NCBI GenBank assembly: GCA_963769425.1
Contig: CAVYLP010000001.1
Location: 224,001 to 288,000 of the forward strand
DNA length: 64,000 nucleotides
Direction: 5' to 3'
From: Candidatus Bathyarchaeota archaeon
Lineage (GTDB): Archaea; Thermoproteota; Bathyarchaeia; TCS64
The notes under the pieces are model-generated. The model worked only from the letters and a program-made list of their open reading frames with translations. It did no database searches and was not told where the DNA came from. The translations under genes were made by a program, and so were the position numbers. Positions 2,237 to 19,534 of this stretch are shown one piece after another. Numbering within the stretch: position 1 is the stretch's first letter; each line of letters starts with the position of its first letter.

Positions 2237-4267
2237 TTAAACGAGACCGCTGAATATGGTCTCAGCCATCTGCCTGATGATGCTCAGGTACTTTACAGCG
2301 TCCGGTTTCGCTCTGCCCAACTTCACCGGTTTGACCCTGCGGAACTGATTCGAGTTCCCCGCATCCACGTAGAGGTAATCGACGAGGTCTCCCGACCCGA
2401 CCCTCAAGTGGTTCATGTTGAGTGCGTTCGCCGCCGTCACGTGGCCGCCGTGGGAGATGTATTCGCCGATATCCCTGCTGAGCACCTTCGATATCTTAAG
2501 CTCCTCGGCGGGCACATCCCCTCTCTCGATCCGCCTGCACGCGTCGTCCACAACCCGCTGCGCACTCTCCCTGCCGACAGTAAGCATCTCCTCGCGTGAG
2601 CCACATCCCATCAATGCCTCCATCATCTTCCTCTGGATGTGCGAAACGAATGGCGGCGTGTCGTGCCTCCTAAGCTCCACGCCGCGGCACTCTATCTCAC
2701 CCGCCGTGGTTACGCCGTAGTATCGGTTCACCGCACCGACCCTGGCACCAGACTTCTGGGGTAGCAGCGCCAGATACCTGAACACGTGCTCCACCGCCAT
2801 GGGGAGCCCCGTCATCTGCGCGATCCCCGCCGCCAGCGCCTCGTAATCCTCCCCCGTCGCGCCCGGGCGGGTGAGAAAGAGGCTGTCAGAGTTGCCGTAA
2901 AGAGTTCTGAACCCGTGTTCGTTCGCAAACGTCATGGCCACCGTCAAGGCCGAGCGCGCCTGCCGATTGATCTCCATGAAGGTGTCCATGCTTCCGAAGC
3001 GGTTCGCGAAGCATCCGCTGTAGCCGTATATGACGACGAGGTTCTCCTTCAGTGCCGTCTGCCGCTCCTCGCACCACAGCCACTCCTCCGAGCCCTTCAC
3101 CAGCTCGCGGCGCCTGTGCTTGAAGTATAGGCGGCGGGTCAGGGCGTCACGGGTGAAGCCCGATATGAAGCCCTCCTCGTCTCCGACGTCGCCGGTGGTC
3201 TCGTAGCTCACGTTGCGCCGGACGATGATGTTGGGAAACATGCTCTCGAAGTCGAGCAGCGCAACGTTCTCGTGCAGCCCCACCGTCGGCGCGAGTATGA
3301 GCCCACCCTTGTCCTGCTCCAGCAGCTTCCCCAGACTCATCACCGGCTGATAGTCTGCCGCGCGTGGCACGAGTATGCCGTGCCTCCGCGCCTCGTAGCA
3401 CTGCCTCGAGTCGATGCACTTACCCGCGGCCCAGTCCGCGCAGAGCCTGAGCGGGACCTTTGTGAACATCGACCGCTCCACCAGCCCGGCGAAGCCGAGA
3501 CGATCCCACGCGCGGGGTTCGACGTGCATCCTCCCGCCGAATAGCTCGACCTCGGAGCCCGCGAGCCGCCCGAAGCGCCTTCCCCCATAGACACGTCCGA
3601 GGTGGATGACCAATCGGAGCGACGCCACGCTTGCACGTATAATGTCGGGGTCCTCGTCGGCGAAGTAGTCAAGGAAGTCGCGGAAGACGCTCTCCGCATC
3701 GCCGTCGAAGGTGTATGCCGGCTTCATAAGCCGGTCGAGGACAACGATAGAGCCGCGGCCCCCCGATGCATCAGCCTCGAAGCTCAACACGTGTAACGGC
3801 GGTGGCTCGGCGTCCAAGCCCAGATCGGCGGCGTGGATCGATCTTATCACGTCCTCGCAGTCGGACTCGACGGCTATGGCTTCGAACGGCGTCAGCCCCC
3901 TCTCGCTGAGATACCTTAACTCGTGGCCTACATCGACATCGTAGACCCGTGCCACGAGTGGGAGACGCTCCACCAACCGTGAGACCTCGTGAAAAGCGTC
4001 GACGCCTCGCGCTCTGATCCTCAGCACAGTCGACTCCGCATCCCGTCGTATGGTAGAGACCCGCTTAACGACTGCAACGTCTCGGATGCCTGGATGCTCC
4101 TCCACCGCCGCCTTCAGGTCCTCGACGGCGACGCCTCTCGGCTCGGCGTAGAAGTCCGGGTGATAGGGGTCTAGGAGCTTCACCCTCCCCAGCTCCGGGT
4201 CCCTGACCCAGAGCACGGCCCGCCCCTCCTCAAACCCGACGTCCAGCAGCCAGCCGTCAACCAGCAT
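2237..4267 (-). CDS. polB2: Family B DNA polymerase, PolB2-type (degenerate exonuclease, altered motif C)
   Basis: Motif A LLDFESMFPNII, motif B RQTALKENLVVIYGYSG, motif C YGNSDSLF (Asn for the first Asp of YGDTDS), NRYYG, RGVELRRHDTP. Confidence 0.85.
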   Translation of the reverse strand: MLVDGWLLDVGFEEGRAVLWVRDPELGRVKLLDPYHPDFYAEPRGVAVEDLKAAVEEHPGIRDVAVVKRVSTIRRDAESTVLRIRARGVDAFHEVSRLVERLPLVARVYDVDVGHELRYLSERGLTPFEAIAVESDCEDVIRSIHAADLGLDAEPPPLHVLSFEADASGGRGSIVVLDRLMKPAYTFDGDAESVFRDFLDYFADEDPDIIRASVASLRLVIHLGRVYGGRRFGRLAGSEVELFGGRMHVEPRAWDRLGFAGLVERSMFTKVPLRLCADWAAGKCIDSRQCYEARRHGILVPRAADYQPVMSLGKLLEQDKGGLILAPTVGLHENVALLDFESMFPNIIVRRNVSYETTGDVGDEEGFISGFTRDALTRRLYFKHRRRELVKGSEEWLWCEERQTALKENLVVIYGYSGCFANRFGSMDTFMEINRQARSALTVAMTFANEHGFRTLYGNSDSLFLTRPGATGEDYEALAAGIAQMTGLPMAVEHVFRYLALLPQKSGARVGAVNRYYGVTTAGEIECRGVELRRHDTPPFVSHIQRKMMEALMGCGSREEMLTVGRESAQRVVDDACRRIERGDVPAEELKISKVLSRDIGEYISHGGHVTAANALNMNHLRVGSGDLVDYLYVDAGNSNQFRRVKPVKLGRAKPDAVKYLSIIRQMAETIFSGLV

Positions 4268-5279
4268 CCTTCCGGCCCCCCCTGCGTTTCAGTTCTTCTA
4301 TCTCCCGCCGGTTGTCGACTATGGCGGTGAGCAGCAGGAGGTCGAGACCGGAAACCATGTCGCTGTTGATCATCGCGCCCTGCTCGTCCGCCCACACCGG
4401 CCACAGCGCATCGAACGCCTCCCTCCTCCCCCCGTCCTTCAGCGTGGCCCTGTACTTCTCCCTGAGTTTGACCATCTGCTCCTGCAGCAATGTCCTCATC
4501 GAATCGCTAGTTATCCTTCCCAATCCTCTGTAGCCTCCCAACTCCACTCTCCTCCCGACCCGCGCCCTGTCGAAGTGCTTCACGAGATAGGCAGATGCAC
4601 CGCTGGGGCTCGCGCGCAGGTAAACGATCACGTTGGCCAGGTGTGTCAGGTAGCCGCTGGCCTCGGGCTCCGGCACGGGGGCGTCGCGGCCGCTGTCCCT
4701 GCACGACGCGATTATAGGTATATCCCGTTCGAGGCCGAGCCTCTTCAGCCGCGACGCCATGCCCCCGAGGTCCCCGCGATGGACACCCTGCACGAGGGGC
4801 GTCCCCGTAAACATCTTCGCTATCTGTTGCACCGTTATCGCGGAGACGCCACCTATGCGGCCCACGAGCTCCTCCGTCAGCTCCGCTGCCCGCACCTGAT
4901 GGCGCTCGGAGAAGGAGCCGATTACATGTATCCTGTTCAGGGCGCCGTTCACGCTCTGTCCCTCGGCGTCGAGGAGGTCTAGCAGCAACGTGGTGTCCAA
5001 AAGCGTGCGGGATCTGCGGTAGTTACCGCATACTAGGTGGACCGCTTTGCCATTGTCCCTGACGGCGTTGACAATTACGTGATGGAGGACCGCGTCGGCT
5101 AGGCGGCTTTTCTCAGTGCTGTAGAAGAGGTACATGAGGCCCGGCTCGAATCCGCCGGTCAGCTCGTCCAACGCCCCTATGTTTGACGCTAGAAGTTGCT
5201 TCTCCTCTCTCTGTTTTAGGAGCGAGGAGGCTGATAAGAAGGTGCCAGCTGTGGGCCTGACTTGCGCCTGAGAATCCAT
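4257..5279 (-). CDS. Degenerate RadA/RecA-like protein fused to a C-terminal arCOG07300-like domain
   Basis: SNIGALDELTGGFEPGLMYLFY resembles the RadA N-terminus but lacks an intact GxxxxGKT. The C-terminal GRITSDSMR...YRATL...AFDALW...EIEELK matches the small PolB2-associated protein pattern. Overlaps the polB2 start. Confidence 0.7.
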   Translation of the reverse strand: MDSQAQVRPTAGTFLSASSLLKQREEKQLLASNIGALDELTGGFEPGLMYLFYSTEKSRLADAVLHHVIVNAVRDNGKAVHLVCGNYRRSRTLLDTTLLLDLLDAEGQSVNGALNRIHVIGSFSERHQVRAAELTEELVGRIGGVSAITVQQIAKMFTGTPLVQGVHRGDLGGMASRLKRLGLERDIPIIASCRDSGRDAPVPEPEASGYLTHLANVIVYLRASPSGASAYLVKHFDRARVGRRVELGGYRGLGRITSDSMRTLLQEQMVKLREKYRATLKDGGRREAFDALWPVWADEQGAMINSDMVSGLDLLLLTAIVDNRREIEELKRRGGRKDAG

Positions 5280-5390
5280 GCAGCACTGGCACACGGATTT
5301 CCAGCCCATTTAAACGAGGCGCATGGTGGGTGAGGGGGGATGACTGAATGTCTTTGAAGCGTCGCGGCGGTTAAATCGACTTGACTGGTT

Positions 5391-10187: not shown

Positions 10188-10282
10188 ATATTGCTAAATT
10201 CGAGCTGTATAAATAGTGATTATTATCTCATGTGCAGTCAACACTATTTAAATAAAAAGTAGTAAACGATGATCAGGAATGC

Positions 10283-10534
10283 CTACATCTTTTCGAGGTA
10301 GGCAACGTTGTTGACGACTGAAACCTCAATCTTGGCGTTCAGGTCTCGGGCGTCGATTCTCTTCTTTAGCTGAGTCCTCAGGTAGTTTGCATCCTTACCT
10401 GATACCTCAACCTTCACTAGGCTGGACTTTCCACCGACGAACTTGTCGATGATGGGGTCATATTTGCTGCCCTTTCTGTACTTTCTAGAGGGCTTCTTCT
10501 CGACGTCTACCAATTTGAATGGTACATCGCTCAT
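10283..10534 (-). CDS. Small basic hypothetical protein, possible nucleic-acid binder
   Basis: 83 aa Lys/Arg-rich ORF (KKPSRKYRKGSKYDPIIDKF...YLRTQLKKRI); TATA-like tract upstream at about 10557-10580. Confidence 0.75.
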   Translation of the reverse strand: MSDVPFKLVDVEKKPSRKYRKGSKYDPIIDKFVGGKSSLVKVEVSGKDANYLRTQLKKRIDARDLNAKIEVSVVNNVAYLEKM

Positions 10535-10910
10535 TTTTTCCACCTGTACCAGAAGTGTTTAAATGAGTTATTAAATTTATTGCACATATTGGATCTTCTA
10601 AATTATCAACAAGATTTGTGACATTTTAGGAATGTAAGTTGAGGTAACTTAATGGAATTCAGGTTAATGCTTATATTAGGCACACCTGACGGGTTATCTC
10701 TTTGAAGGTTTTTACTCCGAGTTGAAGTTATTTCAGAGTTATGTATTCGTCAGGTGTTTGAGCTTGATCGATGTTGTCGGGTCCGCAGATCACTGGGGGT
10801 ATCCCCGCCGTGAGGTGCGCCCTGAGGGCTGCTTGTGGAGTATCTTGGCTAGGAGGTGGACAACCTCGCTCGAATGGAATGTAAAAATGATCCGATTCGG
10901 TAGAGGTTTT

Positions 10911-10989
10911 TGGTGCTCCCGCCGGGATTTGAACCCGGGATCCCTGACTCGAAAGGCCAGTATGCTTGTCCGGTCTACACCACGGGAGC
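10911..10989 (-). tRNA. tRNA-Glu(TTC)
   Basis: Reverse complement GCTCCCGTGGTGTAG...CTGGC-CT-TTC-GA-GTCAG...GGTTCAAATCC...GGGAGC-ACCA; no intron, CCA encoded. Confidence 0.97.
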
Positions 10990-11013
10990 GTGCTGAGATG
11001 TTAGGCTTCGACC

Positions 11014-11060
11014 CGTTTATAATCGTTGCTCAGACTCTGGTCGGTAGTGTTTTTATATTC
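11014..11060. promoter_or_regulatory. Divergent TATA boxes for the two tRNA genes
   Basis: TTTATAAT at about 11016-11023 (about 27 nt before tRNA-Glu on -) and TTTTATAT at about 11051-11058 (about 27 nt before tRNA-Ile2 on +). Confidence 0.65.
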
Positions 11061-11084
11061 TTCGTGGGGGTTTACCTGATGCGT

Positions 11085-11162
11085 GGGCCCGTAGCTCAGT
11101 TTGGCTAGAGCACCCGGCTCATAACCGGGTGGTCATGGGTTCAAGTCCCTTCGGGCCCACCA
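11085..11162 (+). tRNA. tRNA with CAT anticodon, most likely tRNA-Ile2 (agmatidine-modified)
   Basis: GGGCCCGTAGCTCAG...CCCGG-CT-CAT-AA-CCGGG...GGTTCAAGTCC...GGGCCC-ACCA. The GGGCCC acceptor stem is typical of archaeal Ile2 rather than initiator or elongator Met. Confidence 0.9.
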
Positions 11163-11371
11163 TGTTATTTTGGTGGAAAGCGTTGTATAGATTTTAACGA
11201 AAAATTGAAGTTTTTTATGAGAAAAACCTGTCACTCTGAACGTCACTCGTTCTGCGACAAACAGGTGATACTTGGGCAGTTAAGACCAAGAACGTTCTAC
11301 GAGTTCATCCAGGTTAATATATCTTCATCCCAACAAATATAAATATATTTTGTTTTGATATATCGAATTTA

Positions 11372-11515
11372 TTAATTTATATAAGTTAATAAAAAGTTGG
11401 AAAAGTATCTTCGCCTCACCTCACGAACAGTTTTAGTGCATCCATGTCCGCTTCCTCCCCTTAGCCAATCTTCGAGCCTCCTCTGCTCAATCGCCGTGAA
11501 TATGCGTGTTTTCAC
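11372..11515 (-). CDS. Small orphan ORF, possibly truncated (47 aa)
   Basis: GTG start: MKTRIFTAIEQRRLEDWLRGGSGHGCTKTVREVRRRYFSNFLLTYIN*; protein-like N-terminal helix, AT-rich tail; below the ORF-track cutoff. Confidence 0.4.
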   Translation of the reverse strand: MKTRIFTAIEQRRLEDWLRGGSGHGCTKTVREVRRRYFSNFLLTYIN

Positions 11516-11534
11516 ATGGATGCCCCCCAAACAC

Positions 11535-11563
11535 CCGGGTAAAAACCGGGTAAAAACAGGGTA
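11535..11563. repeat. 11-bp tandem repeat with phased A-tracts
   Basis: CCGGGTAAAAA CCGGGTAAAAA CAGGGTA. Confidence 0.8.
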
Positions 11564-11576
11564 TCATGGACTCCTT

Positions 11577-11752
11577 TGTTCCCAGTAACATGGTACATGT
11601 TCCTAGTAGCGTGGAACAGATCGTTCCTAGTAGGGTGGAACATGCGGGTCCTTGATTCACGCGTGGTGTTCCGGGTAAGGTGGTACGTGTTCCTGGTAGC
11701 AGGGTACAATTGTTCCTAGCTACATGGAACATGTTCCTTGTAGGACGGTATA
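11577..11752. repeat. Array of 21-bp quasi-palindromic repeats TGTTCC-N9-GG(A/T)ACA
   Basis: Units start at 11577, 11598, 11622, 11667, 11688, 11711 and 11732, plus a degenerate unit at 11646; consensus TGTTCCTAGTAGCRTGGWACA. Confidence 0.9.
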
Positions 11753-11986
11753 TTGGTTTATCCACGTTTTTCATCATTTTACCTTACCCCTTCCAGTCGC
11801 TGCACCAGTAGAGGTAGGCCTTGCTCTGCCCGAGGACTGCGAGGTTCTGAAGGCATTCGATGGACCACATGGCTGATTTTTTTTTACTTATACCTTGCTA
11901 CAGGTACAAGGGAGACTTGGAAACAGTTCCCCTTCTGCACACACTCAAAACTTACATAAAAAATTATTAGCATAATAATCGTAGAT

Positions 11987-12460
11987 TTATAAACCCTGAA
12001 TATAAGCCTGTGCACAGTGGACACAGCAAAATACCTGTTCCTTACCCTCGACCATTTCCTTATGCCCACCTTTGTATACAACACACCCACAGTGGGGACA
12101 GATATCGAGGCTCGGCTCGATAGCGGCAGAGACTATACCATAGAAGCGTTTGAACATGGCGCGAGCATAGATTCGCCCCTCATCGGTAAGGGAGTAGAGT
12201 TTTTTCTCTTTGTTTCCAATCATGTAGCTTTCGACCGATATCAGCCCTTTTCCATTTAACTGTTGGAGGAAAGGGTAAACGGTTCCAGGGCTGATCTTTT
12301 TCCCAACGCGTTCCTTATACTTTCTGAGTATCCCGTAACCGTGCTCGGGGCCCTCGTAGAGGATTGTAAGCATGTAGAATCGGGAGAAGTCCGATACTAT
12401 ACTATAGTCTTCGGCTAACAAGAGCCATTCGACCAAGAAATCTATCGACAGCTGATACAT
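11987..12460 (-). CDS. PadR family regulator with C-terminal Cys-rich (TRASH-like) metal-binding domain
   Basis: ILYEGPEHGYGI...ISPGTVYPFL..L..KGLI...KKLYSLTDEG; CPHCG...FCCVHCA. Confidence 0.88.
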   Translation of the reverse strand: MYQLSIDFLVEWLLLAEDYSIVSDFSRFYMLTILYEGPEHGYGILRKYKERVGKKISPGTVYPFLQQLNGKGLISVESYMIGNKEKKLYSLTDEGRIYARAMFKRFYGIVSAAIEPSLDICPHCGCVVYKGGHKEMVEGKEQVFCCVHCAQAYIQGL

Positions 12461-12575
12461 TTAACATTATCTAATCACCATCAGAAAAAATAGAAAGTAA
12501 ATATAGTAATTACTGGAAAAGAATCTTTTCGGTTCTAAAAAAGTTAAGAAAAAAAGGTCGAATAGGTTAGTGAGT

Positions 12576-13923
12576 TTATGGCCCGATGGGCGTGAATCCG
12601 AGGACGGCTGGGAAGAAGACTGTTCCTTCTCCTTCCTTGATCTCCTCGGCGTCAGGGTTGTACTGCGCCATGATTATACTCACCGAGGCCTTCGTGGCAC
12701 TCGGGTAGAAGCCCCATACATCGTATGATGGACCGATCCTGTCGCCGGTCGCGTCGAGGCGGCAGGAACCTGCTGCACCGAACGTCTGGTCTGCAGTGGG
12801 CTTCTGTAGCGGGACTAGTACAGCACCTGAAGTGCTCTGAGTCTGGTACATCGAGTTCATGAGTACCAGGGCGATGTCGTAGGAGTAAGCCTGATAGGCA
12901 TTGAACTGCTGCTTTGTCGCTGCTGTGTACCTTGTATCTAGGCTGTTGTAGAGGGGGGTAAGCGTCTGCTGAGATAGTAGGCTGTAGAAGCCGATGTGGT
13001 TAGCCTCATCGGGAGCATCATCCATAGCCCTCTGGCTAACTGCCGTGCCATCGCTGCCCCACCAGTGGACGTTGTAGATGTTCGGGTAGCTGCTCACCTG
13101 CTTGAGGATGACGGAGATCTCGCTGAAGGAGAGCATCACTACGCCGACCCTCTGAGTCTCGCCGCCATTAGCTGCAACCGCAGTCTGCTACCTGCTGGTC
13201 AGCGACCGTCAAGTAGTTCGAGAACTCCGTCGCCTCAGCCGCGTACCTGATCTTGTCACCGACGATGTTTCCGCCCTTCGCCGTCCAGGCGGGGACCAGG
13301 AGGTTGATGATGCCGTCACCCCAAGAGTCGCCGCGCTGGAAGAGGACGAGGCTCTTCACGCCGGCCGCCCACATGATGTTCACCATCGCGGGTGCGAGGT
13401 GGCTGTCGGCGGTGCACATGCGGAAGAGGTTGTCGTTAGCGATCGCGAGCGTCGGGGAGGTGGAGGACGAGCTCCACATGAGCATGCCGTTTGAGTTGCA
13501 GTAGCTGAGGGCCGATTCGGCCTCGGCCGACCAGCCTCCACCCTCGAAGACGGTGACTCCTGCTGACTTGAAGCCCTGAACCTTCTCGAGGTGGGTGTTT
13601 GCCTGACCCTGGGCGTCGTCGACAAGGTACGTGAACGTTGTTCCGTAGCCAAGTATCTGGCTATACGCGTTCATGTCGGTGGCGATTATCTGCTCGTGGT
13701 ATGGTTTACCGACCTCTAGGGCCGTAGTGTCTGCGGCTATGTAGCCGATCTTGACCGCTGCATTCTTCAGGGGAATCTCGGGAACAACGGTGGGAACAAC
13801 GGTAGTTAATACCGTTGTGCTGCCATTGCCACCCTGTGGTGCGGCGAAGTATCCGATGCCTCCGCCTACGATCAAGCCAGCGACTAGAAGAACTATTGCT
13901 AGTGTCATTCCTTTATCTGCCAA
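12576..13923 (-). CDS. Branched-chain amino acid (LivK-like) ABC substrate-binding protein, split by a frameshift at about 13185
   Basis: N-terminal TM, SSSSTSPTLAIANDNLFRMC, RGDSWGDG, QAYSYDIA, LDATGDR; the two ORFs 13168-13923 and 12576-13139 join. Confidence 0.85.
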
Positions 13924-14187
13924 GTTTTACACCTTTTTGAATTTTGGTGATGATTCACCGAAAATACATCGGCTCACGATATATTTATCTTTTGACCTAC
14001 TACTCGTTTTAATGATATTAAAGTAATTTTTAACTAAATAAAGAACCTATTAAAAACTTGAGTAAATCATCCACCCTTATGGATGAATTAAAATGGGGTC
14101 CAGGACACCAAAACTTGATGCCGCGTTGTATGTTCACTCGATCAATAGACTTATTCACTATAGTTAAATTGGCTGTCCACCGAAAGA

Positions 14188-14424
14188 TTAAGGGAATTGA
14201 TTCGCTTCGGATGGCGGAACTGAGCCTTTGAGGAGAGTGAATTTGATGGCGCCCCAGAGGACCTCCACGGCCTTTTGACTGTCGACGAGCCACATTTCAC
14301 TTGGTTTCTTGGTGTAGAGGGGAGAGAATATGCGATCCATCGCCTCCTTGGGGATGCCCATACCCGTGTCCTGACTCAGTGTCACTCCGCCCGCCTCCTC
14401 TCCACTGCGCGTATAAAGTTTCAA
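14188..14424 (-). pseudogene. Histidine kinase HATPase_c C-terminal remnant
   Basis: DTGMGIPKEAMDRIFSPLYTKKP (G1/F boxes); G2 box destroyed; no upstream kinase domains. Confidence 0.7.
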
Positions 14425-14489
14425 AGCGTAGGAGCGATTCTATTAAAACTTACAAAAAATCCGGCATTTACTAACATCAACGGCCTGAT

Positions 14490-17138
14490 CTAGAGCGGCG
14501 TCAAAATCTCAAGCAAGTCGCTCTTCGACCAGAACTTCTCCCCCTCAAGCCCTGCGTCGATGACGCCGTCGATGATCCGCCTCTTCCTCTTGATGAGGGC
14601 GTCGATCTTCTCCTCCAGCGTGTTCTCGACGAGTATCTTGTGGATGTAGACTGTACGCGTCTGACCTATGCGGTGGACCCTGTCTGTGGCCTGGTCCTCG
14701 ATGGCGGGGCTGAACCAGTTGTCGACGTGTATGACGTGGTTGGCGGCTGTGAGGTTGATGCCGTGGCCCGAGGCGAGGACGCTGCAGAGCGCCACCGCGT
14801 AGCCGCCGCAGTTGAAGGCGTCGATGAGTCCCTGCCTGTCGCGGGTCTGCCCATCTATCCGGATGTACCTAATTCCAGCGCCCTTGAGGTGCTCCTCCAG
14901 CAGGTTGAGGGTACCAATAAAGTTGGTGAAGACGACACAGCTCTCCCCACCCTCCCATATTTCGCCTATCTTCTCGCAGACTAGATCAAACTTCTCTGAG
15001 CGGCCTAGGATGGGCTCCCAGACACCGTCGATCATGGCTGGATGGTCGCAGAGCTGGCGGAGCTTCATTATGACGGGGAGGACGCTGTCAATGTAACCGA
15101 CGCGCTGCCCGGATCGGATGCGCCCCTCCATCGGGGCCACCTCGGAGTCCTGTATGCGCTGGTAGAGCAGCTTCTGCTCACCCGTGAGGCTGACCCAGTA
15201 CCCCATCTGTATCTTCTCGGGCAGGTCCTTCGCGACCTGCTCCTTCTTCCGACGGAGGATGAACGGGCGTACACGCCTCTTCAACTCCTCGACCTGCGTC
15301 GAGTCCCCTTCGACTATTGGTTTCTCGTACCGCCAAAGGAACTCATGGTACGTACCGAGGTGGTCGCGCATGAGGAAGTCGAAGAGGCTCCAGAGCTCAG
15401 CGGGCCGGTTCTCAATTGGGGTGCCGCTGAGCGCGAGCTTGTGCGCCGCGTTCAGGGTCTTCACCGCTCCCGCCCTCTGTGTGCCTGGGTTCTTTATGCG
15501 GGTCCCCTCGTCGAGGACGACGAAGAACCAGGCGATACACCTGAACTCCTCAATGTCGGCGACGACTGTGTCATAGCTGGAGACGTAGATAACCCGTTTA
15601 CCGTCCGGGGGCTCTAGCCTCCGCCCCTGCCCGTGGTAGACTCTGACGACGGTTGTGCAGGGAAAGACGGCGGCTATCTCCTTCTCCCAGTGGCGCATGA
15701 CGGCGACAGGGCAGATGATGAGGGATGGCTCCGAGGCACCCGCTTCCTCGTATATGTATCTCATTGAGACTAGACTCTGGAGGGTCTTCCCGAGCCCCAT
15801 ATCATCGGCGAGGAGTCCGTGGAGGTTGTGCTCGAATAGCCAGTTGAGCCACTGGATTCCCGAGCGCTGGTAGGGGAAGAGGCCCCGCCCGTGGGACTCC
15901 AGGTGCTCCTCGATCTTCGTGGGAAGATGATACGTGTCATCACCGCGGAAGTCGGTTATCTTGTCGAGGAAATTGTGGTAGTCCTCGGACGCCTTCTTGA
16001 GGCCACCTATCTCCTCTATAAACTCTTCAAGCGACTTGTAGGCGTGTAGGCCGAGGCGGTAGCCCTTCGGCGTCTTCTTGGCGCCGAGTTTCTTGAGACT
16101 TTCTTCGTCACCGCGCCTCTGGACCTCGACCCGCTTGGCCCAGGTATAATCGTCGGTCTTCACGTACTGCCCATCGCCGCTGACGGATAGTCCCGGGGCG
16201 TCTGTGAGGGGGTCGTAGATGACGTTGAAGTCTAGCCACCCCGGCTCCGTGTAGTCGATGACTACTGTGGGGGGGAGGTAGTCCTCGGTTATGTTGATCT
16301 TGCTGGCTCTATCAGTGAGGACAGCGGAGAACTCACTCCTCAGAAGCACGAGGTCCCTGAGGAAGAACTCGGGGATGTCGCGTAGGTCGATTGGCTTCTC
16401 GGCGAGGCTCATCGCCTTCTCTGCGGCCTCGTTGAGGAGGTAGAAGGTGTCGTCGACCTTGAGGTAGCCGTCGAGGTGCTCGACGGCGGAGCTCTCGATC
16501 TTATGCCCGTCGGCATCCGCGAACTGGGGGGCGACCGTGACGCCCAAATCCGGCTTGTAGTCGACCGTGATGCCCATTATCGGGCTACCCGTCCTTACCC
16601 TAATCCCCCTCGACTTCTCTGTCTCGCGGACGCGGAGGAGCCTCCTGAGGGTGAGGAGGATATTGGGGCTAAAGGAGAAAACGAGGTGCCCCCCTTGCAC
16701 ATCCGGCCTGAGGGAGCGGATGCTCGCGAGCACGCTGAGGCTCTCAGGGTTGAGGGTTTTCTTCAGCCCGTTGATTGTGATCGTTCCCCCTGTGGTGTCG
16801 ATCTGGGATACGTCGACGTGCTCCGAAACTCCTGACGCATTGACCTCGATGACGTGGCGGTCCTCATCATCTACGTCCAAGGTGAAGGAGAGGTCAATCC
16901 CTCGGGGTGGAGCAGGCCTCGGGGCAGTAAGCTCAGCCATGAGGCCCCTGATGCTTTGCGACTGCCTCCTTGGCTCCTCGACCACGCCCGCGTTGTCGCA
17001 GGGGGAGAAGCACCTTATCACAGACTCCGATCCTCGTACCCAGTAGAGGTATCTCTTCCTGCATCTTAGGCACCGCTCCGGGTTCCGAGGCACTATGATC
17101 TTGGGGGTTAGCGGCAATCCGCCACTAGACGAGTACAC
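14490..17138 (-). CDS. SNF2/SWI2 family helicase-like ATPase
   Basis: LFPYQRSG, LADDMGLGKT, VLDEG, LSGTPIENR, LRQLCDHP, GINLTAANHVIH, QATDRVHRIGQ; start uncertain. Confidence 0.93.
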   Translation of the reverse strand: MYSSSGGLPLTPKIIVPRNPERCLRCRKRYLYWVRGSESVIRCFSPCDNAGVVEEPRRQSQSIRGLMAELTAPRPAPPRGIDLSFTLDVDDEDRHVIEVNASGVSEHVDVSQIDTTGGTITINGLKKTLNPESLSVLASIRSLRPDVQGGHLVFSFSPNILLTLRRLLRVRETEKSRGIRVRTGSPIMGITVDYKPDLGVTVAPQFADADGHKIESSAVEHLDGYLKVDDTFYLLNEAAEKAMSLAEKPIDLRDIPEFFLRDLVLLRSEFSAVLTDRASKINITEDYLPPTVVIDYTEPGWLDFNVIYDPLTDAPGLSVSGDGQYVKTDDYTWAKRVEVQRRGDEESLKKLGAKKTPKGYRLGLHAYKSLEEFIEEIGGLKKASEDYHNFLDKITDFRGDDTYHLPTKIEEHLESHGRGLFPYQRSGIQWLNWLFEHNLHGLLADDMGLGKTLQSLVSMRYIYEEAGASEPSLIICPVAVMRHWEKEIAAVFPCTTVVRVYHGQGRRLEPPDGKRVIYVSSYDTVVADIEEFRCIAWFFVVLDEGTRIKNPGTQRAGAVKTLNAAHKLALSGTPIENRPAELWSLFDFLMRDHLGTYHEFLWRYEKPIVEGDSTQVEELKRRVRPFILRRKKEQVAKDLPEKIQMGYWVSLTGEQKLLYQRIQDSEVAPMEGRIRSGQRVGYIDSVLPVIMKLRQLCDHPAMIDGVWEPILGRSEKFDLVCEKIGEIWEGGESCVVFTNFIGTLNLLEEHLKGAGIRYIRIDGQTRDRQGLIDAFNCGGYAVALCSVLASGHGINLTAANHVIHVDNWFSPAIEDQATDRVHRIGQTRTVYIHKILVENTLEEKIDALIKRKRRIIDGVIDAGLEGEKFWSKSDLLEILTPL

Positions 17139-17271
17139 CCGGCTAAAAACCGTGCGGAGCCCCCTGAGGGAGAGCCGTCAACTTTTACAGAAAGGCTTTA
17201 AACCGGGCTCCGCATCTCCATGCGTGAATCCCCCGGTTACACGGGGGGCAATGACTCTCAGAGTGTTCAAT

Positions 17272-18120
17272 ATGAGCGAAGAGAAGAAGCCCATCGAGGA
17301 GAAGACGGAAGAGAAGCCAGTCGAGGAGCCGAAGATAGAGGCGCCCGCAGCCGAGGTTAAGACAGAGGAGGCGCCGGCTGAGGCACCCGTCGAGGCTAAG
17401 GAAGAGAAACCCGCTGAGGAGCCCCGCATCGAGGGCGCCGTCAATAAGGGCGACTTCATCCTCATGGAGATGACGGGCAAGGCAGAGGAGACCGGCGAGG
17501 TCTTCGACACCACAAACGAGGAGACAGCCAAGGAGAAGGGCATCCACCGCGAGGGCAACGTCTACGGCCCACGCCTCGTCGTTGTCGGCGAGGGCTGGGT
17601 GCTACGCGGACTCGACGCCCGCTTGCGCGGCACGAAGCCGAACGAGCAGACGGCAATCGAGATTCCGCCAGCCGAGGCATTCGGCGAGCGCGACCCCGCA
17701 CAGGTCCAGCTCATCCCCTTCCGCATACTACGCAGCAAAGGCGTCAACCCGGTACCCGGGGCTGAGCTTGAGATCGATGGCCGACAGGCGGTCATCCGCA
17801 GCGTCGGCGCCGGCCGCGTACAAGTCGACTACAACCACGCGCTCGCGGGGAGGAAGATCATCTACGACGTCAAGGTCACAGAGATCATAACGGAGGAGAA
17901 GGCGAAGGTCAAAGCCCTCATCGGCCGCCGCTTCGTCGGCGTCGACGCCGAGAAGTTCGGCCAGAAGATGGGCAAGAAGAAGATGACCCTCACGGTCCCC
18001 GACGAGATCTTCTTCGGCGAGAACATACAGATCGCCAAGAGGGGCCTCGCCATGGATGTCCTAAAGTTCTTCCCCGAGCTCGAAGACGTCGAGTTCTTGG
18101 AAATCGTTAAGCGCAGCTAA
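17272..18120 (+). CDS. Long-type FKBP peptidyl-prolyl isomerase (SlyD-like) with acidic N-terminal extension
   Basis: GEVFDTT, VVVGEGWVLRGLD, PPAEAFGERDP, VDYNHALAGR. Confidence 0.92.
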   Translation: MSEEKKPIEEKTEEKPVEEPKIEAPAAEVKTEEAPAEAPVEAKEEKPAEEPRIEGAVNKGDFILMEMTGKAEETGEVFDTTNEETAKEKGIHREGNVYGPRLVVVGEGWVLRGLDARLRGTKPNEQTAIEIPPAEAFGERDPAQVQLIPFRILRSKGVNPVPGAELEIDGRQAVIRSVGAGRVQVDYNHALAGRKIIYDVKVTEIITEEKAKVKALIGRRFVGVDAEKFGQKMGKKKMTLTVPDEIFFGENIQIAKRGLAMDVLKFFPELEDVEFLEIVKRS

Positions 18121-18144
18121 ACTCTCTTTTTCATCGGTGACCTC

Positions 18145-19338
18145 ATGGGCTCCGACTCACTAGTCGTGGGCGCGGGGCCTGCGGGTCTTCTAGCAGCCAA
18201 GCAAATCGCATCAAGTGGCTACTCAGTAAAGATTCTGGAGGAACACAGCCAGGTTGGGATCCCAAGCCATTGCGCGGGCCTAATTAGCATCGAGGGGCTC
18301 AAGCGTATCGGTGTCGTACCGTCGTTTAGCTTCATCCAGAATTCGGTCTACGGGAGCCGAATCTACTCCCCCGACGGTCAGTGCATCGAGATCCGGGACA
18401 AGCGCTCACGCGCACATGTCGTGGACAGGGCTGCCCTCGACCAGCACCTGGCGGAAATGGCCCTCGACGCCGGGGTGGAGCTAGTACTCGGAAAGAGAGT
18501 GGATAGGCTCACACTCACCAATGGTGCTGTAACAGGTGCTTCAGGTGCGGGCTGGGCCGAGGAGGCACGCATCGTCATCGACGCTGAGGGCCCCTCTCGG
18601 CGACTCGCCAAAGCAGCGGGTCTAGCCACTAACAGGCGAGCACCACTCCTCGGTGTGAACACCGAGGTTGAGTGCGAGATCGACCCAGAAATGGTTGAGG
18701 TCTGGTTCAGCGAGGAGACAGCTCCCGGCTTCTTCGCGTGGGTTATACCCACCTCCGACAGACAGGCGAGGGTGGGACTCGCTGCCAGGAACGGCGATCC
18801 AACAAGGCACCTCACTAACTTCATCAAGAAGCGCTTCAACTCAGCCTCCATCCAACCTCCGAGGGTAGGGCAAGTGCTCGTCGACGGTCCCCTAGACAGG
18901 ACATCGTTCCCTGGCATTCTGCTCGTCGGTGACGCAGCTGGGCACGTCAAACCGACGACCGGGGGCGGCGTGGTCCTAGGGGGACTCTGCGCCATCGAAG
19001 CGGGGAAAGCCTCCGCACTAGCCCTCGAATCCGGTACCCTCGACGCCACCTCGTACGACGAGGCGTGGAGGGGGCTCTATGGCTCCGAGTTCAAGAGTAT
19101 GCAAATGATGCGTTCCCTCGCAGACAGGATCTCAGATGAGAGGATGAACAGGTTCTTCGCCGCCTTCAATAAAGCGAAGTTGGGAGAGAGGCTCAACGAC
19201 CTCGTCTCAGAGGGGGACATGGACCTGCAGGATGGGGTGATCAGACGCGCCCTTTCGGAGCCCCGACTTATGCGTGCGGCCATTGGCGGCCTCGGAAGGC
19301 TCGTACTCGCCGAGCTGCGCGAGCTAGTCAACATTTAA
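18145..19338 (+). CDS. Geranylgeranyl reductase family FAD oxidoreductase
   Basis: VVGAGPAG, HCAG, APGFFAWVIP, LVGDAAGHVKPTTGGG. Confidence 0.9.
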   Translation: MGSDSLVVGAGPAGLLAAKQIASSGYSVKILEEHSQVGIPSHCAGLISIEGLKRIGVVPSFSFIQNSVYGSRIYSPDGQCIEIRDKRSRAHVVDRAALDQHLAEMALDAGVELVLGKRVDRLTLTNGAVTGASGAGWAEEARIVIDAEGPSRRLAKAAGLATNRRAPLLGVNTEVECEIDPEMVEVWFSEETAPGFFAWVIPTSDRQARVGLAARNGDPTRHLTNFIKKRFNSASIQPPRVGQVLVDGPLDRTSFPGILLVGDAAGHVKPTTGGGVVLGGLCAIEAGKASALALESGTLDATSYDEAWRGLYGSEFKSMQMMRSLADRISDERMNRFFAAFNKAKLGERLNDLVSEGDMDLQDGVIRRALSEPRLMRAAIGGLGRLVLAELRELVNI

Positions 19339-19372
19339 ATATCGAGCCAAGCTTGTATCTGGGCTGATCAGT

Positions 19373-19534
19373 ATGTCCATATGCATCTCTTGTGGCAGGA
19401 AGGTCGCCCCCGGGGAGAAGGCGGTCAAGATGAGCTGCCCCAACTGTGGCGCCGTAACGATCTGGCGCTGCGAGAAGTGCCGCCTCTTCGGCCGCGCATA
19501 CAGGTGCCCCGCCTGTGGATTCCAGGGCCCATAA
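19373..19534 (+). CDS. Small zinc-ribbon protein (DUF1610 / HVO_2753-like)
   Basis: Manual translation MSICISCG...CPNCG..IWRCEKCR..GRAYRCPACGFQGP*; four CxxC. Confidence 0.9.
   Translation: MSICISCGRKVAPGEKAVKMSCPNCGAVTIWRCEKCRLFGRAYRCPACGFQGP

Follow-up and report, generated by a model that had tools for sequence, protein, structure and literature searches.

The iteron origins of R6K (gamma), pSC101 and P1 are built of direct repeats of about 21–22 bp with partial dyad symmetry, with an AT-rich tract and bent DNA nearby. Plasmid centromeres are also repetitive, and consist of 43-bp repeats in sopC of F and of 20-bp repeats in parC of pSK41. In archaea, origins are described, in the available portion of the source, as replicator–initiator pairs in which an AT-rich region flanked by origin recognition box (ORB) repeats adjoins the initiator gene, and new archaeal origins are described there as captured extrachromosomal elements (PMC4010727). 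The mini-ORB of Pyrococcus is given as TTCCAGTGGAACT in the accessible part of a further report (PMC1904270). The site of AspA on pNOB8 and the S1 and S2 sites of SegB in Sulfolobus are, in the excerpts available, one or two 23-bp palindromes upstream of the proteins' own genes; dimers of the winged-helix protein AspA and of the ribbon–helix–helix (RHH) protein SegB bind next to one another and build up superhelical filaments (PMC5120986, PMC8682754), as do those of the RHH protein ParR. We describe here a tandem array of eight 21-bp dyad repeats (11577..11752, assigned to neither strand) in a stretch of 64,000 nucleotides from a Candidatus Bathyarchaeota archaeon (assembly GCA_963769425.1, contig CAVYLP010000001.1, positions 224,001 to 288,000), which is referred to as the window and whose numbering is used throughout. 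The contig measures 423,803 bp, and proteins that cluster at 90% identity or more with the AspRS/Pth2 of the window bear the names Candidatus Bathyarchaeia/Bathyarchaeota, as expected for archaeal DNA. The array lies far beyond chance, its conservation supports a site shaped by a symmetric DNA-binding protein, and we tentatively read it as the iteron-type site of a mobile replicon.

An array of 21-bp dyads

The unit is TGTTCC-N9-GGWACA. Seven good copies, which start at 11577, 11598, 11622, 11667, 11688, 11711 and 11732, stand together with a decayed one at 11646 that reads GGGTCC-N9-GCGTGG. A first-pass annotation, made from the sequence alone, had placed all eight at these same positions and had them joined head to tail or with gaps of 2–3 nt; the start-to-start steps of 21, 24, 24, 21, 21, 23 and 21 bp, and thus gaps of 0, 3, 3, 0, 0, 2 and 0 nt, agree with that description. 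The scan with TGTTCC-N9-GGWAC that it had proposed, run on both strands of the 64 kb with at most one mismatch, returned 15 matches against 1.78 expected, a number reached by none of 100 shuffled sequences. Twelve of the 15 are inside the array, and the other three, with one mismatch each, are elsewhere in the window. Moreover, the junction palindrome GGWACATGTWCC has three matches in the window, all within the array, against 0.24 expected. The array is real and far exceeds what chance would produce. Scans of the window with a position weight matrix (PWM) and with nhmmer found no further unit above the level of shuffled sequence, the best PWM score outside the array being 9.4 bits and shuffled windows averaging 10.5, and neither these scans nor the pattern search detected, within the 64 kb, the many copies expected of interspersed repeats resembling repetitive extragenic palindromes (REP), bacterial interspersed mosaic elements (BIME) or miniature inverted-repeat transposable elements (MITE). 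Tandem Repeats Finder (TRF) did not report the 21-bp array at a score of at least 30; a repeat search recovers it, in the form of a 20-nt repeat with five copies and of a 42-nt double unit with three. We mention a possible ninth unit at 11889..11909 because it is only 137 bp from the array, to the right and just after a run of nine T residues. Decayed, inverted (minus strand) and one base short (TGTACC-T-GTAGC-AA-GGTATA), it scores 6.2 bits with the PWM and is the second-best nhmmer match outside the array (E = 2.2 for the whole window), and is suggestive only.

The consensus of the seven good units is TGTTCCTAGTAGCATGGTACA. Positions 2–6, 9, 16, 17 and 19 are invariant in all seven, positions 1, 10, 11, 20 and 21 vary once, and position 18, the sole arm position to vary between A and T, has A in three units and T in the other four. 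Mismatches occupy 6 of the 84 cells of the near-invariant 6-bp arms (12 positions; three of the six at position 18), as against 18 of the 63 cells of the cores (9 positions), a difference for which Fisher's test gives p = 6e-4, a post hoc value since the arms were delimited after inspection. The nine-bp cores, called semi-conserved in the first-pass annotation, thus vary by about 29%; the same annotation had named arms no better conserved than cores as the mark of a neutral repeat, and within the array the arms are the better conserved. The central GTA of the core is kept, as part of a central block GTA(G/A)(C/G), and the two conserved blocks of the unit are mutually reverse-complementary. Unit 7 keeps both arms around an inverted core, its GCTAC corresponding on the other strand to the GTAGC found in units 2 and 6; the cores of the remaining units are GTAAC, GTAGG or GTAAG. 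The half-site GTGGAACA, earlier likened to those of parS and said to occur in two units, was found in units 2 and 3. Paired abutting units make up four double units, starting at 11577, 11622, 11667 and 11711 with a period of 44–45 bp, in which unit 3 pairs with the decayed unit. The short spacers between the double units stay locally palindromic (ACATGT, ACAATTGT and ACAGATCGT; CATG, AATT and GATC), and the junction dyads between units take the form GGWAC-N2/4/5-GTTCC.

This organization supports a cis-acting site shaped by a predicted DNA-binding protein of two-fold symmetry, probably a dimer. The T at position 18 breaks the hairpin that a unit could form without any compensating change, and therefore argues against a function as RNA or cruciform and for recognition as duplex DNA. 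The arm/core pattern and the uncompensated A/T position in the arm both lend support to the dyad-symmetric, dimer-bound site that the first-pass annotation had envisaged. As far as sequence can tell, the arm/core pattern shows past selection for binding, not present use.

The array is located in an 824-bp gap without a recognisable gene, which extends from a tRNA(CAT) gene to the 3' end of a gene for a PadR regulator with a TRASH domain and has a GC content of about 44%, lower than the roughly 60% of the window. To the left of the array, the gap contains an AT tract (11335..11404, no strand assigned) that had been noted before and that, at 88.6% A+T, has the highest 70-bp value of the window. 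The least stable 100 bp of the window are found at 11311–11410, with −104.5 kcal/mol against a mean of −150.1 (standard deviation 8.1); the next least stable tracts, which are ordinary promoter regions, reach about −109 kcal/mol. TATA-like elements that can be read both ways (TTTATATA at 11376–11383), as judged by their likeness to the TTTTTATATT box upstream of tRNA-Met, are found within the AT tract, and the tract is a candidate for an unwinding element or for a promoter region. Immediately to the left of the array, TRF identifies 2.6 copies of the 11-bp repeat CCGGGTAAAAA (11535..11563, plus strand; period 11, 94% matches), in keeping with the A-tract repeats reported in the first pass, and the phasing of their A5 tracts suggests an intrinsic bend at this point. 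On the far side of the AT tract there is a loose cluster of GAAC/GTTC dyads (11238..11313, no strand assigned), with GAACGTCACTCGTTC, AGAACGTTCT and GTTC; its density, five GAAC/GTTC over 168 bp or 29.8 per kb, exceeds the 7.9 per kb of the whole window, but the cluster is weak and could be chance. Possible oligo-T terminators, T5 at 11773–11777 and T9 at 11877–11885, follow the array on its right.

Likeness to described sites and to arrays in other genomes

By analogy, the anatomy of the array appears to match plasmid and phage iteron arrays and, less closely, plasmid centromeres. Iteron origins carry 4–8 direct repeats of about 21–22 bp, or two helical turns, with partial dyad symmetry and with an AT tract and bent DNA near, and the array shares the repeat length and the dyad symmetry and has an AT tract and a predicted bend in its vicinity; where at least three direct repeats of about 17–22 bp in helical phase are expected, seven and one decayed are found, at steps of 21–24 bp. 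The array differs from iteron origins in that it is non-coding, has no Rep or organiser gene beside or around it, and lies 173 bp away from its AT tract. As to plasmid and archaeal centromeres, the array shares with them tandem units that each carry a dyad, and its higher-order period of 44–45 bp compares with 43 bp in sopC. The repeated dyad sites of a partition centromere are present; adjacent genes for an NTPase and a centromere-binding protein were not found in the window. Unlike the AspA and SegB sites, the array has eight units and no ParA/SegA, ParB or AspA-type operon adjacent to it.

The likeness to ORBs lies in the GTTCC and GGAAC half-sites and in the clustering of repeats near an AT tract, cooperative binding being reported for ORB clusters in the accessible part of PMC1904270. 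The half-sites are 9 bp apart here and 3 bp apart in the ORB and mini-ORB, however, so that the agreement in half-sites and the discrepancy in spacing pointed out in the first-pass annotation both hold, and the G-rich extension is absent here. Neither the units (TGTTCC-N9-GGWACA) nor their junctions (GGWAC-N2/4/5-GTTCC) contain the TTCC-N3-GGAA core. Moreover, the array is tandem and lies on one side of the AT tract, the other side having only the loose GAAC/GTTC cluster. Among the papers listed in a literature search with both hexamers and archaea, none describes the array motif with the N9 spacing. The report on SegAB carries the hexamers, in its available text, in a scrambled control DNA, and in the available portion of a report on Bacillus PadR they flank the operator (PMC5728393). 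A full-text search judged by titles and abstract openings found no mapped origin, centromere or operator for Bathyarchaeia. The array motif with its N9 spacing matches no described element found in this limited search of the literature.

Arrays with a related grammar are found elsewhere. A scan of genome contigs with a pattern of two adjacent units returned at least 118 loci. Among the matches listed, at least 72 are from one Hoylesella loescheii genome, at least 9 are from Prevotellaceae metagenome-assembled genomes (MAGs) and one (L008) is labelled archaeon; the genome of the window and its relatives are not among these matches, which is no evidence of absence. Open reading frames (ORFs) were listed for 12 other loci, and those of nine of these and of L008 were searched against Pfam. 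Among the loci examined, the array is mostly found in or between chromosomal genes that are unrelated to one another. Two loci have the arrangement of a replication module. In L074 (1952–2072), six GGAAC-N3-GTTCC dyads at 21–22 bp lie within residues 124–160 of a 312-residue HTH_36+DnaB_2 protein, in the linker between the two domains, and a DnaB helicase gene follows. In L008 (1971–2071), four such dyads fall in residues 113–142 of a 257-residue HTH_36 protein, behind the HTH_36 domain, and a gene for an IstB-like ATPase comes next; although the MAG is labelled archaeon, this locus has a GC content of 41%, a phage-like gene set and a phage-type replication module. Five GGAAC-N3-GTTCC dyads are also present in a 303-residue ORF without a family match in L045 (1972–2071). 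Phage origins can sit inside the gene of the replisome organiser, a layout like that of L074 and L008, and the in-frame arrays of L074, L008 and L045 are presumably, by this analogy, phage origins inside a gene. With the phage-type modules of L074 and L008 the Bathyarchaeota array has in common GGAAC/GTTCC dyads at a 21–22-bp period (with one 44-bp gap in L008), in their case inside HTH_36(+DnaB_2) genes. The inner spacing of the dyads differs, at N9 within units and N2–5 between them in the array as against N3 and N9 in L074 and L008, and the likeness is not one of homology.

Two further groups of loci were seen in the same scan. The Hoylesella/Prevotellaceae element, for example at L001:1960–2060, is interspersed and conserved, occurs in both orientations and measures at least about 220 bp (aligned length). 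Its centre has four to five tandem TGTTCCA-N7-TGGAACA units with a 22-bp period between conserved flanking arms, it occurs in at least 72 places in one genome, and its appearance is that of a MITE or of a family of regulatory repeats. It shares with the array the grammar of the unit and a 22-bp period, at four to five units per copy, and differs from it in being bacterial and in its recurrence at 72 or more places of a single genome; in the 64 kb the archaeal array occurs once, and the two have no flanks in common. Intergenic arrays of GGAAC-N2-GTTCC-N9 with a 21-bp period are found at L031:1950–2130 and L048:1930–2090, both from one Verrucomicrobia MAG, and L067, L069 and L030 also have arrays of this kind, in several bacterial phyla and between unrelated housekeeping genes.

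Coding capacity of the gap and neighbouring genes

A coding tandem repeat was rejected, as no single frame runs through all units and the step of 23 bp from unit 6 to unit 7 causes a change of frame. A 96-codon ORF that crosses the array on the minus strand was likewise dismissed: its product has no homologue at E up to 0.1, is itself absent from the protein collection and matches no family at E up to 0.01, its stop-to-stop frame giving only a chance-level match in NCBIfam (E = 0.08). Searches with Pfam, NCBIfam and PHROGs of the ORFs and stop-to-stop frames of 10190–11986 yielded nothing at E < 0.01, and the weak matches of frames in the gap (E = 0.08 and 0.15) are at chance level. To the right of the array, a 58-codon frame has a sole match, P0289 (1183 residues, 13 stretches), which is a translated junk tandem repeat unrelated to the array. 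Among known RNA families, the gathering scores of Rfam are reached by the two tRNAs only. A CRISPR is excluded because the units have no spacers between them, and a C/D-box small RNA was discarded, an AUGAUGA on the minus strand at 11778–11784 having no D box downstream.

The left border of the gap is a plus-strand tRNA gene with a CAT anticodon (Met or Ile2; 11085..11162), detected by ARAGORN and by the Rfam tRNA model (68.6 bits). Divergent from it is the gene for tRNA-Glu(TTC) on the minus strand (10911..10989; ARAGORN and Rfam). Thus, of the tRNA-Glu/Ile2 pair named in the first-pass annotation, the Glu member stands and the CAT tRNA is present, but ARAGORN calls the latter Met, a call from which Met and Ile2 are indistinguishable. 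On the right, the gap is bordered by the minus-strand gene of a PadR winged-helix regulator with a C-terminal metal-binding TRASH domain (11987..12460; PF03551, E = 1.4e-14; PF24273, E = 0.0037). At 235 bp, it is the nearest gene for a DNA-binding protein, and its product is a candidate binder of the array only by proximity. The protein has 686 homologues, the best 120 of which are 58–100% identical, the few source names given for them being Bathyarchaeia/Bathyarchaeota and one Asgard; by sequence it matches solved structures of the PadR family, and AspA is absent among its solved-structure matches at E up to 1. A literature search on archaeal PadR with a TRASH domain found nothing. On the far side of the tRNA genes, about 1 kb from the array, a minus-strand gene (10283..10534) codes for a lysine/arginine-rich protein of 83 residues without a Pfam domain. 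Its 1829 homologues are 73–98% identical, and 33 columns are invariant in 34 aligned sequences; its best family score is at chance level (E = 0.011; Pfam, NCBIfam and PHROGs). The AlphaFold2 model is poor (mean predicted local distance difference test score 61.8), with a disordered basic N-terminus followed by helix–strand–helix–strand–strand, and Foldseek finds no PDB structure similar to the model at E up to 0.001, the best match having E = 0.24. For a homologue, the Atlas yielded "hypothetical protein" clusters only. The protein is probably abundant and specific to Bathyarchaeia, and probably binds nucleic acid or associates with the ribosome.

The gene order at the locus is cmk, L14e, 83-residue protein, tRNA-Glu, tRNA(CAT) and PadR, and protein matches at 73–99% identity point to related Bathyarchaeia genomes, some of them on contigs of 0.4–0.9 Mb. 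Further away, a LivJ-like binding-protein gene next to the PadR gene is split into two minus-strand ORFs, an N-terminal one at 13168–13923 (Peripla_BP_6, profile 2–192) and a C-terminal one at 12576–13139 (ANF_receptor, 186–350), and is either a pseudogene or an assembly error. An SNF2-family helicase of 882 residues is encoded at 14490–17138 (minus strand), 2 kb from the array, with partial, sub-cut-off matches to the defence helicases ZorD and DrmD. A family-B DNA polymerase-like gene (2237–4267, minus strand; 676 residues; 210.8 bits against an NCBIfam cut-off of 516), about 7 kb from the array, overlaps by 11 nt a 350-residue ORF without a family match (4257–5309, minus strand), and the two may represent a split or divergent PolB. 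At 7 kb, the PolB-like gene proves nothing about an origin.

Competing readings and their implications

Taken together, the readings in which a protein binds the array are likely. Among them, we tentatively put first that of an iteron-type replication or partition site of a mobile replicon that was inserted next to the tRNA genes, or a site left by such a replicon, as distinct from the chromosome's own Orc1-dependent origin; the array is possibly a relic of a mobile element. Each 21-bp unit would offer two inverted half-sites, TGTTCC and GGWACA, with the central GTA(G/A)(C/G) block between them, and one dimer would be bound per unit through the arms. Because abutting units are exactly two helical turns apart, the dimers of a 42-bp double unit would lie on one face of the helix and be able to touch. 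The four double units could then nucleate a cooperative nucleoprotein complex of about 180 bp, with the predicted A-tract bend as its neighbour and with the DNA of the region that melts most easily at a distance of 173 bp. The setting resembles an insertion hot spot, with tRNA genes, a GC content of 44–48% against about 60%, and the split LivJ-like gene, and the same grammar is found in the mobile replication modules of L074 and L008.

A number of observations weigh against the mobile-replicon reading. Part of the likeness to L008 and L074 was built into the search pattern, and it is one of grammar, not homology. No frame of 10190–11986 encodes a cognate Rep or organiser adjoining or containing the iterons (no match is better than E = 0.08), nor a fragment of an integrase or Rep. 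Families of Orc1/Cdc6, ParA/SegA, ParB, ParM, Rep and integrase are missing among the scanned ORFs of the 64 kb, that is, non-overlapping ORFs of at least 110 codons (53 were searched against NCBIfam, and those without an NCBIfam match, together with the neighbours of the array, against Pfam; no WhiP model was used), as the first-pass annotation had already held for cdc6/orc1 and parB. A bounded integrated element was considered and rejected, the window having no second copy of the 3' half of the tRNA; no attachment-site-like direct repeat was found in 10880–19400 (8.5 kb), and a blastn search of the gap against 50,697 phage and 72,556 plasmid records, with the low-complexity filter on, gave nothing at E up to 0.01. 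Both flanking genes, for the 83-residue protein and for PadR, are conserved Bathyarchaeia host genes of 47–48% GC; as these host genes are themselves low in GC, low GC is no mark of foreign DNA here. Finally, the 173 bp between AT tract and array exceed the distance in textbook iteron origins. Given the tRNA genes on one side and the decaying gene nearby, we nevertheless rank a mobile iteron site first, and after it, in this order, a host operator, a minisatellite, a chromosomal origin or centromere, and an RNA element.

That the array is a host operator or architectural array, coated by a chromosomal transcription factor, possibly the PadR+TRASH protein, is a possibility that we regard as doubtful. 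The factor would control or insulate an unannotated transcript arising from the AT tract, with its TATA-like element at 11376–11383, or would separate the tRNA and PadR transcription units. The conserved host genes on both flanks and the proximity of the PadR gene argue for it, and plus-strand transcription starting at about 11406 would run through the array and reach the T5 or T9 run; winged-helix and RHH proteins coat repeats and spread in the cases of AspA and SegB, as far as the available text of the two reports goes (PMC5120986, PMC8682754). Inverted repeats that suit a PadR dimer serve as operators in this family, usually at the promoter of the regulator itself or of a target. The array is, however, downstream of the PadR gene, whose promoter region has no unit, and is unlike the padC operator of Bacillus, a 22-bp site with CATG half-sites in the accessible part of the source (PMC5728393); operators vary widely in this family. 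The gap also lacks a conserved ORF or an Rfam RNA to be regulated, the units are not overlapped by a strong TATA box, and there is no second site in the 64 kb. A neutral minisatellite, a functionless array produced when slippage multiplied a palindromic 21-bp unit, is in our view unlikely. It is in line with the single locus, the variable spacing of 21–24 bp, the decayed unit and the missing partner gene, with a region that contains a pseudogene (the split LivJ-like gene, unless this is an assembly error), and with the arrays of the same grammar that arise in many unrelated bacteria, some of them inside coding repeats. Against it stand the uneven distribution of mismatches between arms and cores, the reverse-complementarity of the two blocks that are kept, the palindromic junction spacers, and the unit that retains both arms around an inverted core.

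The first-pass annotation had proposed an undescribed origin or partition site, chromosomal or left by an integrated element. A chromosomal origin or centromere of a novel type that is still active, with its initiator or segregation protein encoded elsewhere, we consider improbable. Much of the anatomy would fit it, namely the long, gene-free and AT-rich spacer in which the window's DNA is least stable, the phasing of A-tracts and the repetition of dyads. The half-sites moreover equal those of the Pyrococcus mini-ORB, and multiple mini-ORBs bind Cdc6 cooperatively in Methanothermobacter, according to the available part of PMC1904270. However, origins are described as replicator–initiator pairs in the portion of PMC4010727 available, and the 64 kb have neither an Orc1/Cdc6 initiator gene beside the array nor ParA/B; the archaeal centromere-like sites known from the accessible text of PMC5120986 and PMC8682754 comprise a single palindrome or two, upstream of the operon to which they belong. 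The half-sites are spaced by N9, not N3, and the units are in tandem on one side of the AT tract, not inverted around it. In addition, tRNA-Met (plus strand) and PadR (minus strand) are transcribed toward each other across the gap; divergent transcription is expected at origins, a bias that is weak in archaea. The cumulative disparities, for which a turn at the locus had been anticipated, have their minima at about 31–32 kb (GC and purine–pyrimidine) and at 37 kb (AT), none being at 11.5 kb, in a test that is weak over a 64-kb window and with archaeal skew; the amino–keto curve is highest at 9.6 kb, some 2 kb to the left of the array, and skew at third codon positions (GC3) tracks gene orientation. 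In sum, the absence of a nearby initiator gene and of a skew turn, and the converging transcription, leave the origin or partition site without support from any test run; none of these points is decisive, and nothing independent supports either an origin or a centromere. We see only a slim chance that the array is the working core of a Bathyarchaeia origin or centromere that is unpaired with an Orc1/Cdc6 gene and read by an unrecognised protein, for which the PadR+TRASH and the 83-residue proteins would be candidates. Least probable of all is an RNA element, that is, a transcribed array that folds into hairpins or into one long hairpin. The array does fold better than shuffled sequences (z = −2.63 on the plus and −4.20 on the minus strand), and a possible promoter and oligo-T terminators flank it, but the low folding energy is an automatic result of the palindromic units. 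Positions 4 and 18 would pair as U-U in four of the seven units without a compensatory change, the flanks are unstructured (z = −0.38 and −0.85), and there is no match in Rfam.

Bathyarchaeia are abundant, uncultured archaea, for which a well-defined array is a concrete handle: it could be the bait with which binding proteins are captured by DNA affinity, from enrichment cultures or with recombinant proteins, and could mark a fixed point when origins are mapped by coverage in metagenomes. Should the array prove to be lineage-specific and unbound, it would be an ordinary minisatellite. If it is an origin unlinked to Orc1 or a new type of centromere, the known range of archaeal replicon biology would be widened. 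If it is a relic iteron array, it would mark the tRNA-side insertion site of an unknown plasmid or virus of Bathyarchaeia.

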